Of a stretch of DNA of 64,000 nucleotides, positions 4,601 through 10,600 are shown piece after piece (the first letter of the stretch is position 1; every line of letters begins with the position of its first letter). The translations under genes were made by a program, and so were the position numbers. The stretch comes from Narcine bancroftii (taxonomy: Eukaryota), in contig NC_091480.1 of NCBI RefSeq assembly GCF_036971445.1, forward strand, positions 22,134,001-22,198,000, in the 5' to 3' direction. The notes under the pieces were generated by a model. That model saw only the letters and a program-made list of their open reading frames with translations. It was not told the origin of the DNA and did no database searches.

Positions 4601-7600
4601 AACATTTTACATTGGGGTCAGGGAGAATGGGGTGGGGGGGGTGGGGAGGAATTGGTGGAAAGATGTAGGGAAAATAGATTGCACACAAACAAGCAAAAGC
4701 AAGAATGTCTTTTTGTTGAATGGGTAACAAGGTTCCAAATTCTTACTCCACAGCACAGATACTGATCATAACAAGACTTGGTTCCAGCTCAGAAATTTAC
4801 CAGTGATAAATCCAGATTGATGGAGGCTGGGCTTATTTTACAATGGATGTCCAATAACATGGCAGCAACCACCCATCCAAAAATAAAATTGCTAACCCAA
4901 ACACGCAATAGTGGCAAAGCCTGTTCGCTTTTCTTCTGAAAATGTGCAATAGAAGGGCCTGTTAAATTGTGATGTCTTTTAAGTATACTTGTTGAATTTT
5001 AAATTATTAAGTGATTGACCAATTTTGGAAACTGATTGTAAACATAAACTATAATCCATCGGTTAAAGGCAACTTAATAAAAAAATTTAGAAGTTATTAG
5101 CCTTGACCCTATTTTTAAAATCATACACTAATACAACAACAGTTCAATAGATTTTGAATTAGCATCAAATGACGAACACTGACCTGGAGAATCATGAAAC
5201 AGACTACAAACACTCTTTTCAGGAGTATTAAAGAATGTTGTGGCGATTACATTGTATTCTCCATCTGAGCAAAACATCTAAAATTACAAAAGTGACATGA
5301 TTACAATAAAGTGGGGGCTTTTTTTGCATCTTTTTGGACAACTGCAATGAAACTGTACAATCAGATTGACAGCCAAATTTTAGTTTGACCAGTCAAAATC
5401 CTCCAAAGCAATCACAAACTACGTTTGATTTTTTTTTGTAGACCTCGCACCTTTTAAATTATTTAATAATTTGGATAATGCAGTAAAGTGCAAACTTGCT
5501 GTTAAAAAATCCAAATTAAGATGAAATAGCAAGAAATTAATTTAAGTAGTAAACAAGAAGTCTGTAGATGCTGGAAAACTGGAGCAACACACAAAGTGCT
5601 GGAGAAACTCAGTGGATCAAGTTAGCGTCCATGGCAGTAGTTCTCAATTTTGTTTTTCCCCCGACATAAGATTCTGCTGTTAGTAAGGGATTACTTAAGG
5701 TGGTGTGTGAGTGGGGAAAAAAGGTTGAGAACCACCAATAGTCAATGTTTTGGGGTGAAAATCTTTCATCGGGAAATATTATAAATCCAAGGCAGTTATC
5801 CTCTTATTTCATCATTTTTGTATCACTGCAGTGAGAGGAGTTAGGTTACTCAACCATATGGGAAATTTTAAGCCAGAATTCAACCATGCAAACTGGACAG
5901 TCATCAGATGCAGCAGAAGTGAATTAACCTCTTGCAAGACATGCCACAGCCACAATCAAATACAAGATAGCTCCGTCTACATCTAGTCATTCTAAGAACA
6001 ACAGCCTTATCAATGTGCAACATAGACCCATTGAGCCAAGAGGACAGACATTTTTCTCAGCATACAAAAAACAGATGAAAAAAATTCTGTAAGATGCAAT
6101 TATTGCTGATTTCAGTCCATTTTTGTAGAGCTCGTCGAAAGAATCAAAGACTTGTTGATCCAAACCAAGGCTTTTATTAGCAAAAGACAGGAGCTCTTCA
6201 CAGGTGGCCGACCTGTCCGGAATGATCCGACCTGGCTAGGGACACAACCCTTTAAGACCCAGACAATAGGCGTGGCTTAGCTCTCAGCCAATCGCTGTAA
6301 GCACAGTCGAGATACTGTAACTATATACACTATATACATTGGTGATAGATCTGTACTATCACAATTTTGCACATGGCAGACAGGATACAGAGAAATGGAA
6401 ATAATACAGCAATTTGGCAATTTTAAATCAAGGTTCTGCCATTTATCTGCAATAAAGTTAAATGAACGTCCATTGCTGATGTCAGTGAATTTTTCCATTG
6501 CATTCACCATAATTTAGCTTTGATTAAATAATTACATGTGAATATTTTGGTTTTAATTTTAGTCAAATTTTTCCTTTGCATTCCTGTGGAGTACCCTAAA
6601 TATAACATTATTGATGCAAATTACCCTTCACTACCTCACCCATTTGGTTATTTTTCATATGCAAATCCTGAAAGAAACTGCCAGCTGACTCGACCAGGGG
6701 TTCCCAACCTTTCTGTTCCTCTGAACCCCTTGGGCATTTTTAATCGGTTCCTGTGTACCCCTAAAAATTAAGGATTAAAAAAAAACACCACTTGTGCAAT
6801 CTGACTGCAGATTACAATGCCATGTATTGTACAGCAATGATTATTCTCTCAGACCCAGTGTACCCCTGAAAGGTGCAAATGTACCACTGGGGGCTACATG
6901 TACCCTAGGATGGGAACCCCTGGACTAGACAATGAGAGAACAGTATTTTCTTTTTTTTTTAATTTTTTATTTTTCACACCATAAATCACATTAGCCATGA
7001 TATACACTATTTCTTTTTCACACATATACAGTGACTTTTTCTCCCCCCCCCCTCCCTCCTCCCAAGCCACCCCCCCACCCCCCCCTCATCCATTTTAGGT
7101 ATACAATCTAGGTTGCATTAAGCCAGTCAGACAATGTTGTCATTCAACAAAAATACACCAGAAATTCTACTGAGTCCATTCTTTTCTTTCCTTCTCCTTC
7201 CATCAACTTAGGTAATGTTTGTCCCCGGTAGGTTTTCGCTATTGTATTTAATGTAAGGCTCCTATACTTGTTCGAATATTTCAATATTATTTCTTAACCT
7301 ATATGTTATTTTTTCTAATGGAATACATTTATTCATTTAAATTTAGTAGTTTCTTCCTTTTAATTTGGTTATGTATTCCATTAATATTTAAAGACATATA
7401 GTTCAGCGTAGCCCTTTTATATTTTGTTTATCTTCTCTTTCCGTTTTTCCATCATTACCTTTCCTCCTTTTCCATTTCTGTTTTCTTACTTTCAACTCTT
7501 TATAAGACAACATTCCTACAACATCCAACATTTTCCTTATTCTCCTATTTCTATCTTATTTATCCCCAATCTCCCCTTCCCCTCCTGAGTTGTCCTTTAT

Positions 7601-10600
7601 CCCTTGTCGGACAACCACATCTCCCCTCTCCATTCGGATTTGCGAATCCACTCGCAAGCGTCAACTGATTTTGCAGTGACCGCTATTTCCCCCCACCCCG
7701 CCCCCCCAGAAAAGATTTCACTTTTCATATGTCACAAAGGTCACTCTTTTAATTCCCTCCTTATTCTCTCTATTCCATTACCTTCCCTTATTAATTCTTG
7801 TCTATACTATCTATATTTTCCTCTAAGTACAGATACATTCACGTATGCACATTGTCTCTATTCACTCTTATACCTCTTTACCCGCATACATATCAATCGT
7901 GATCATTTTTACTCTCATTACCCGTCTTCATCCCTCAGTCTATTTTTGTCTTTACCCACATACACATCAATCGTGATCATTTTTACTCTCATTACCCGTC
8001 TTCCTCCCTCAGTCTATTTTTGTAATTGTTCTGCAAATTTTCGTGCTTCTTCTGGATCCGAGAATAGTCTGTTTTGTTGTCCTGGAATAAATATTTTCAA
8101 TACCGCTGGATGCTTTAGTATAAATTTATACCCTTTCTTCCATAAAATCGCCTTTGCTGTATTGAACTCTTTTCTCTTCTTTAGGAGTTCAAAACTTATA
8201 TCTGGATAAATGAAGATTTTTTGCCCTTTATACTCCAGTGGTTTGTTGCCCTCTCTTACTTTTTCCATTGTCTTCTCCAGTACCTTTTCTCTTGTAGTAT
8301 ATCTTAGGAATTTTACTACAATAGATCTTGGTTTTTGTTGTGGTTGTGGTTTAGAGGCCAATACTCTATGTGCCCTTTCTATTTCCATTTCTTGCTGTAG
8401 TTCTGGACATCCTAGGGTCTTAGGGATCCACTCTTTTATAAACTCCCTCATATTCTTGCCTTCTTCATCTTCCTTAAGGCCCACTATCTTTATGTTATTT
8501 CTTCTGTTATAATTTTCCATTGTATCTATTTTTTGAGCTAGTAGTTCTTGTGTCTCTTTAGTTTTTTTATTAGATTCCTCCAATTTCTTTTTTAAGTCTT
8601 CTAACTCCATTTCTGCTGCTACTGCCCGCTCTTCCATCTTGTCCATTTTCTTTCCCATTTCTGTTAAGGTCATCTCTATTTTATTCATTTTCTCTTCTGT
8701 GTTGTTTATTCTTTTTCTTAAATCATTAAATTCCTGTGTTTGCCATTCTTTAAATGACTCCATGTATCCTTTAATAAGAGAAAGTACCTTCTTTATCTTG
8801 CCTTTCTTTTCTTCTTCTATTTCACTGTACTCTTCCTCTTCCTCTTCTTCTTCCTCTGGGTTGGCCATCTGTTGTTTCTTTGTTGCCCTTTCCTTCTCTT
8901 CTTTCTTGTTTCCATTGTCTTCTGTGTTCTCCTCTTGCTGCAGGTGTTCTGCAGCTGTCGTTGCCGGCTGTGGAGATCGACTCCCCAGCTGGTCCCCCCT
9001 CCCGTCGGTGTGTTTTTTTTCATTAGCATCGCGCATGCGCGATTCCCCGCGCCTGCGCGGTTGCGCACTTTTACTCGGCTCAGCGAGCCATTTTTGTAGT
9101 CCATTATTTACCGACCTGAGGGAGCGGGTTTCTCTCTCCGCAGCGGGTCTCTTCGGACAGGTAAGGCCTTCACCTTTTTCCTCCTTTGTCTTCTCTTCCT
9201 CTCTTCTTACCGTTGCTTTCGATTTTTCTTTTATTGTCGCCATCTTCTTTCCACCTTTATACTCACTTTTTTGTAACTTTTATTTCTGTGCCTTTGTGTT
9301 TTCCTTTGTTTTTCCCGACTTTTCTGGAGAGGGCTGGAGTTCACCGTCCGGCCACTACTCCATCACGTGACTCCTCTCCGAGAGAACAGTATTTTCAATG
9401 TTCAAAAACCGCTAGCTTGGATGACTGAGGAAGACCTGGGTAATGTTCTGTTCGCCAATTGGATTTGTTTCAACCAACATCCATACTCCCAATTTGCAAA
9501 TATTCTTCCTAAAAGAGCTGTTAAAGGAAATTTTTTAAAAAACTCTGAAAGCCAATGCCACAAGCTATAAATTTTCAGAAGAAATTTAAAAAACTTACTT
9601 GAAGAGGATATTTAATAGGGTCTTCTCCAATTGGCTGGCAGTCACTAGAGTACATAGCATAAATCATAATAAAAGATACCGTAGCTGTTACTGCTCCAAC
9701 TAGCATTGCCTCAATGACTTGTAAGCAGGGACGATGAATGTACCTATTCAGATAAATCAAAAGAGGTTCATGTTCTCTTCCACTGATTTGTATTGGTCAT
9801 TAATTTCATAACTGATTATAAAGTGGTTCACAAATAACTATCTGGATTTACTGTCGCACATATACACAGATGGGAGAGAACTACTGGAGAAGAGCAAGAA
9901 ATATTTTTGTTCTATTAAAACAAACTGCCTGCCAAGTTTGGTTCTGGTCCGCTACAATTAATGTATGCAAACTGTTCTGGAAGATGAGGATTAGATTTTG
10001 AAATTCGTGATGCTGAAAAGTAGAATTCTCAAAACACACCATGCATGCAAGAATCAATGTTTGTAAAAGATATTCCAGAATGTTTTTTGTAACATGATCT
10101 TCATGCTCAAATTTAATTCACCATTCTGGCAATTGCCTTCTTATGTCTTCTCTGACTCAGTCTGTGAATCCAAAGGTAATTATATAACTTCAGGAAAAAA
10201 AAAAGAAAAAAACTTACAAAGAAACAGGTTATACCAAAGAAAATGTTGAATATGTTACTCATCTTTCCCTTTGACTCCTAAACATTGGTCCTACAATCCC
10301 CATCAAAAGCTATGAGATCTCAGCTACTGCACAGAGTCTGGCTTGGAAAAAGATTTCATTGGATGACTCCCCAGTGACAACTAACGTCGAACTACTGACT
10401 CTCATTTTTGTTAAAATGGAAATGTTTTGGAAAGTGTAGATGAAATTATTTTAAACCCGAACAAAAGAAAGTTGATCAAATGCCAAAGAACTTCAATGGT
10501 TTATCATCAACACATCTCTGATAGGTGATCATAAAATTTTACTGATAATTCTTCTCGCAACAACAAATGTGGCATTATGCTTGCATCCTTTAAGCTCAGT

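Follow-up and report, generated by a model that had tools for sequence, protein, structure and literature searches.

A HAL1-like half-L1 family in the ray Narcine bancroftii and its apparent origin from a surviving 6-kb L1

When an element carries an open L1-type ORF1 (first open reading frame) and little more than the two ends of ORF2, is it a damaged L1 copy or a member of a non-autonomous family that moves with borrowed proteins? The question is raised by a 2.43-kb element in a stretch of 64,000 nucleotides from Narcine bancroftii (NCBI RefSeq assembly GCF_036971445.1, contig NC_091480.1, positions 22,134,001 to 22,198,000 of the forward strand), here called the window. A sequence-only reading of the window had proposed a young HAL1-like family. 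We are confident that the element is one of at least 1,850 half-L1 copies that arose once, when a surviving 6-kb L1 (hereafter the helper) lost 3,590 nt of ORF2, and that likely borrowed the helper ORF2 protein (ORF2p) and likely coated their RNA with their own ORF1 protein (ORF1p).

The element lies on the minus strand throughout, and its coordinates are given as window positions (Table 1). It measures 2,429 nt between two direct repeats, and its size, identical 17-bp target-site duplications (TSDs), A tail, 136-nt 5' untranslated region (UTR) and open 409-aa ORF1 were all as first described. The 5' UTR, shared with the helper, is likely an internal promoter. In a structure-sequence search, residues 197-403 of ORF1p matched human L1 ORF1p (E=2e-13), covering the coiled coil, the RNA-recognition motif (RRM) and the C-terminal domain (CTD); a Pfam search at E 0.01 did not recognise the protein. 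There were five matches at E<=1e-20, and the best three named relatives (92, 69 and 86% identity) are all from Narcine bancroftii, which fits the label "elasmobranch". Three ray database proteins that match ORF1p (P0002-P0004) bear the names FAM122B, GrpE-like and syntaxin-binding protein 6, and represent either L1 sequence absorbed into gene models or mis-annotation.

The remains of ORF2 were described correctly in outline. The start codon is indeed AGG (7415-7413), while 76 of 77 helper copies keep ATG, and the two stubs are fused out of frame, so that the endonuclease frame stops at 7331-7329. The breakpoint, first placed near 7339, lies at 7338/7337, with the A at 7338 assignable to either side. 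The 3' stub of supposedly about 40 codons comprises 42 (7336-7208) and contains an internal TGG>TAG stop that had gone unmentioned; this stop is present in 66 of the 100 copies fetched (see below) and arose after the deletion. Also absent from the first description were the 598-nt spacer and a 74-bp duplication, which is present as two units in 37/52 half elements vs 3/43 helpers.

Exact searches for the junction were run over the 3.33-Gb genome, and their counts are lower bounds. A 36-mer gave 1,749 matches and a 25-mer 1,859, and reversed controls gave 0. Among the first 100 half elements listed, which were fetched for analysis, 85 extend to the 5' end and 99 include the 3' end. TSDs of 10-20 nt flank 81 of them, each one different. 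The commonest target junctions were TC/AA, TT/AA and TG/AA in half elements and helpers alike, and we take them to resemble the mammalian L1 endonuclease site. A one-off deletion in an ordinary L1 copy after its insertion should leave a junction unique to its locus, the outcome that the sequence-only reading had named as fatal to its own proposal. Such events occur in this genome, as helper L250 carries a private ORF2 deletion, a third deletion form known from this single copy, whose junction was found once. For the window element this explanation is virtually impossible, being refuted by the 1,749-1,859 junction copies and the 81 distinct TSDs in 100. The copies thus form a family with a single common breakpoint and parent, inserted at unit length with 10-20-bp TSDs and a helper-like target preference, and their structure and target sites make trans mobilisation by L1 ORF2p likely. 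No read contig of the kind that an empty site would give, joining across the element, was present among the joints listed. Read contigs of three other organisms contain parts of the half element; a 59-nt contig spans the junction without differences, with fewer than 31 letters on each side, and was not counted.

The parent was sought through the sequences that the deletion had joined. The un-joined endonuclease start gave 2,836 matches in the genome and the un-joined ORF2 end 10,186; the first 80 of the 2,836 were fetched and comprised 77 helpers and three members of a second deletion family. The helper is a 6.03-kb L1 with the same 5' UTR and 409-aa ORF1 and an ORF2 of 1,265 aa with RVT_1 (E=1e-42) and Exo_endo_phos (E=1.5e-12) domains. 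Its copies are 94-97% identical to the half element, whose ORF2 stubs are 95-98% like the parent. The 3' stub had been compared with an L1 end at 23625-23750 of the window; the homology is real (about 80% identity), but that sequence belongs to a different L1 and not to the parent. It lies within a 5'-truncated copy at 23313-23795 of another L1 family, about 80% identical to the helper ORF2 end. ORF2 is open in 32/77 helpers. The helper has the properties of the autonomous partner of a HAL1-type element, with both ORFs open in 16/62 full-length copies, a common 3' end and the same target preference, and it is likely still active. Near-identical young helper copies were observed, and intact helpers are unusually frequent.

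All 86 full-length half elements (the 85 fetched plus the window copy) fell into one clade within the helpers, both in a tree of the whole 5' part and in a tree of the region beyond position 880. On this phylogeny, the half-L1 family appears to have arisen once from the local 6-kb L1. Two points weigh against this reading: the clade support is only moderate (FastTree 0.75-0.76), and the analysed set, being the first 100 half elements and first 77 helpers listed, all on contig C1, was not a random draw. At the ORF2 start, 88 of the 100 copies have AGG, four have ATG and two have other triplets; six were not read. Three of the four ATG-bearing copies sit near the base of the clade, so the deletion preceded the loss of the start codon. 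The AGG start was also seen in L175, which has a full-length ORF2, and in one copy of the second deletion family, either through exchange or through recurrent mutation.

A different origin would be that each copy is made afresh from helper RNA by a recurrent skip, through splicing or a hairpin-guided jump, with no independent lineage. The one feature that invites this idea is a 13-bp inverted repeat, with its arms separated by 3.6 kb in the helper and placed just outside both breakpoints; in three of four helpers examined, no other long-range perfect inverted repeat is longer. It folds locally in the half element (z=-4.4, in a folding window chosen post hoc). However, the duplex of the 50-nt flanks lies only at the 5th percentile of random pairs (10th for the second family), and hairpin guidance is a weak lead. 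Splicing was rejected, as the ends of the deleted part are CT..GA in one register and AC..AG in the other, and GT-AG is lacking in both, as are GC-AG and AT-AC. The half elements also group in a separate clade and bear private alleles throughout, AGG among them, and the youngest helpers yielded no such copies in the sample. Monophyly refutes the recurrent skip, which we consider highly improbable. The founding deletion, with its 1 nt of microhomology, most likely arose when the reverse transcriptase (RT) jumped or when a single master copy lost this DNA.

The proposed course of events is as follows. A 6-kb L1 would have lost 3,590 nt of ORF2 in one of these two ways, and its ORF2 start codon later. 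Transcription would start from the common 5' UTR, half-element ORF1p would bind its own RNA in cis, and helper ORF2p would drive target-primed reverse transcription on the A tail. While active, both lineages swapped short ORF1 tracts, in single copies and presumably across whole subfamilies, and template switching or gene conversion is the most probable mechanism; the half element seems afterwards to have ceased amplifying. With counting started at a common 3' point, full-length copies make up 85% of half elements but only about 22% of helpers (2,836/10,186 x 62/77, a rough figure as the search patterns differ). A short RNA with a helper-like end would thus give more promoter-bearing new copies per jump.

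The epithet "young" suits the family, whose copies lie about 0.5-0.8% from their subgroup majorities, but the family looks older than the youngest helpers and apparently no longer amplifies. It does not suit the window copy, which falls in the older subgroup and carries 8 private substitutions, twice the family median of 4. In a comparison in which half elements were sampled more densely than helpers, the nearest sampled neighbour differed at nine or more sites for 86/86 half elements, whereas 20/62 helpers had a neighbour at six or fewer. The lack of close half-element neighbours beside close helper neighbours suggests that the half-L1 family stopped amplifying while the helper continued. The family is real and recently amplified, and probably quiet now.

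Other derivatives of the same L1 exist. The second deletion removed 3,219 nt in frame, leaving a 2.7-kb element with a 192-aa mini-ORF2 (first 99 plus last 93 residues). Its junction gave 54 matches, eight of them in a tandem array, and 12 of the 23 copies considered (L154, L155, L186, L251-L270) read through to the natural end. The eight junctions of the array, about 17 kb apart (G000:C1:384067114-384187936), mark a tandem segmental array. A further kind of deletion affects ORF1 itself. Tandem CG-rich palindromes, which we assume to resemble an NRF1 site, are intact in the window copy (Table 1) and deleted in 77 of 162 full-length copies drawn from the three families, with a higher frequency among older copies (P=8e-4). 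The commonest losses are 31, 18 and 32 nt. The 31-nt form, the most frequent, is present in read contigs of four runs and is therefore not an assembly error; it frameshifts ORF1 in 29/86 half elements and 18/62 helpers.

Is the ORF1 of the half element kept open by selection? Substitution counts left out CpG sites and sites near indels, and changes found in at least four copies were treated as shared. In the helper, the ratio of non-synonymous to synonymous rates (omega) is 2.25 for the N-terminus, 0.34 for the coiled coil and 0.28 for the RRM-CTD. Shared changes of the half element number 29 in codons 1-247 and two in the RRM-CTD, and their density per kb is 35-42 in codons 1-247, 13 in the spacer and 4 in the RRM-CTD, the same pattern as in the helper. 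With homopolymer runs and the hotspot set aside, 27 frameshifts and nine stops remained, and every one was private, so that no shared disabling change was seen against 2.4-4.4 expected (P 0.09-0.012). These data weakly support selection keeping the half-element ORF1 open. Several results count against it. ORF1 is open in 28/86 full-length half elements vs 34/62 helpers. The dN/dS check that the sequence-only reading had recommended gave no purifying signal, with 25 non-synonymous and six synonymous shared substitutions (omega 1.33) and an omega of 1.07 for private ones. Moreover, few shared disabling changes were expected in the first place, so a cis need for ORF1p is at most a possibility.

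The same numbers can be read as those of a passenger ORF1. The RNA would then be moved like that of a short interspersed element (SINE) or a bipartite long interspersed element (LINE), helper proteins would do all the work, and ORF1 would be open only through youth. An omega of about 1 for shared changes fits this, as do the 58/86 half elements with a broken ORF1 and the second deletion family, in which ORF1 is open in only 2/14 full-length copies. Nevertheless, no disabling change outside recurrent hotspots is shared along the lineage, whereas the ORF2 remnant has both a destroyed ATG and a new stop, and changes are denser in codons 1-247 than in the spacer or the RRM-CTD, as in the helper. 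We consider a passenger ORF1 possible, though unlikely.

Mosaics were sought among the 162 full-length copies, and three clear block mosaics were examined (element positions). Helper L172 carries 17/18 half-element alleles over 666-1025, including half-element-private ones; half element L193 carries 13/13 helper alleles over 195-298; and half element L202 carries 5/6 helper alleles over 550-609 and two helper indels, the whole block spanning 533-609. L208, another candidate, had a patchy pattern and was left out of the count. ORF1 sequence has been exchanged between the lineages in single copies, in both directions.

At the level of whole subfamilies, exchange is what we infer from allele distributions. 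In the latest half-element subgroup, 8/15 changes in ORF1 codons 1-247 match helper-derived alleles, compared with 0/4 in the spacer. Three alleles at 692-703 changed jointly to those of the half element in later helpers. In the youngest helpers, two indels and four adjacent alleles at 533-573 came back; the donor of this second block may have been the half element or its progenitor lineage. Two reservations apply: the nominal P of 1e-8 for the allele matches ignores hypervariable sites, and one of the eight matching alleles (position 593) may be ancestral. The subfamily-level alleles could instead be parallel amino-acid changes under a common pressure, for instance from a restriction factor of the host or from joint assembly with helper ORF1p. 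Seven of the eight shared changes are non-synonymous, the helper N-terminus evolves fast, as its omega shows, and shared sites are interleaved with lineage-differing ones, so that tracts would have to be under about 40 nt. Against convergence of this kind stand the clear block mosaics of single copies, the simultaneous return of two indels and four adjacent alleles at 533-573, and the joint change of the trio at 692-703; parallel change is conceivable but doubtful, and we favour exchange. A speculative and rather improbable extension is that the half-L1 served as an ORF1 gene bank, a cheap and mostly full-length pool where variants of the N-terminus and the coiled coil, among them the I186/M189 swap and the block at 533-573, would have arisen first, and from which today's youngest autonomous L1, which outlasted the half element, would have taken them up. 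If true, the half-L1 would be more than a parasite, namely a source of ORF1 variants for its helper.

The element sits within an intron of a gene resembling CLCN7, in the orientation of that gene and about 200 nt downstream of an exon. A 246-bp element close to its 3' TSD is presumably a hAT-type miniature inverted-repeat transposable element. The pentraxin and coiled-coil frames (49714-55570), further along from the CLC-7 exon, would in our assumption fit a PTX4-like gene, and the other LINE 3' ends look RTE-like to us.

Table 1 Features of the half-L1 copy and of its surroundings, in window positions
Feature	Position	Strand	Remark
5' TSD, 17 bp	9380..9396	-	identical to 3' TSD
5' UTR, 136 nt	9244..9379	-	common to half element and 6-kb helper
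ORF1, 409 aa, open	8014..9243	-	variable N-terminus, coiled coil, RRM-CTD
ORF1 codons 1-247	8503..9243	-	blocks and alleles common to half element and helper
Tandem CG-rich palindromes in ORF1	9028..9074	-	intact here; deletion hotspot in sister copies
74-bp tandem duplication	7875..8022	-	across the ORF1 stop
Inter-ORF spacer, 598 nt	7416..8013	-	holds most of the 74-bp duplication
ORF2 5' stub	7338..7415	-	first 26 endonuclease codons; start ATG>AGG
Deletion junction	7337..7338	-	3,590 nt of ORF2 gone; 1-nt microhomology
ORF2 3' stub	7208..7337	-	last 42 codons, out of frame, internal stop
13-bp perfect inverted repeat	7316..7383	not applicable	arms 7316-7328 and 7371-7383
3' UTR	6951..7207	-	G-rich tracts, AATAAA (6971-6966), A10 tail (6960-6951)
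3' TSD, 17 bp	6934..6950	-	identical to 5' TSD
246-bp element	6686-6931		25-nt terminal inverted repeats, imperfect 8-bp flanking repeat; 3 nt from 3' TSD
Host exon, CLC-7 (CLCN7) chloride/proton exchanger	9599..9745	-	E=2e-14 to human CLC-7
Pentraxin domain	49714-50412		
Coiled-coil frame	54719-55570		
Copies of another LINE 3' end	20275-20948, 36973-37868, 39122-39747, 62574-62990		
Two tandem arrays	382-1098, 43457-43978		read as long open frames

HAL1 is a non-autonomous L1 derivative that codes for ORF1p alone and has several origins in mammals (PMC5753468, PMC13756887); it is credited to Smit 1999 and to Bao and Jurka 2010, as cited in PMC5753468, PMC5786205 and PMC13756887. The Narcine element derives from the L1 clade, given its match to human L1 ORF1p (E=2e-13) and a parent with an APE-type endonuclease and RT; it codes for ORF1 only, its 26- and 42-codon stubs being out of frame, and it spread as one unit bearing an A tail and flanked by a TSD. 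Descent from a mammalian HAL1 was rejected, since the half element is nested in the local 6-kb L1 family at 94-97% identity. It thus appears, from its sequence relationships, to be an independently arisen HAL1-type element: like mammalian HAL1, an ORF1-only L1 derivative, but differing in its batoid host, its local L1 parent, its exact breakpoint (stubs 95-98% like the parent) and the visible ORF1 exchange with its helper. In the literature searched, with subscription papers, Repbase and Dfam not covered, no HAL1-type case from a shark or ray was found.

A further parallel is rat RNHAL1, a young family of about 7,500 copies whose 5' part is 98% identical to the active L1, and for which binding of its own RNA by ORF1p has been proposed as the advantage (PMC2241872). 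Unlike the Narcine family, which looks stopped, RNHAL1 is described as still propagating (PMC2241872). HeT-A (Jockey) and Ag-Sponge (CR1), which are bipartite non-autonomous LINEs with an ORF1, likewise result from an internal deletion that spares ORF1 and both element ends, and their protein is thought to multimerise with helper proteins (PMC5786205); these two belong to other LINE clades, and the Narcine half-L1 has no telomere role. Mouse L1 families recombine, including transfer of the coiled coil, and RT strand switching has been proposed as the cause (PMC3600994). There the partners are autonomous families and the segments long, whereas here a non-autonomous element and its helper exchanged about 10-360 nt in both directions. 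Episodic coiled-coil change is described in primates, where the open question of hybrid trimers is discussed (PMC7449397). The Narcine family makes it testable why half-L1s keep ORF1, through cis need or as a passenger, and whether the fast-evolving ORF1 of a helper receives sequence back from its non-autonomous lineage. What it adds to these known systems is two-way ORF1 exchange between half element and helper and a complete and young record of origin: a single genome, at less than 6% divergence, contains the parent, the breakpoint and the succession of events, besides another, smaller deletion family and a deletion that happened only once.

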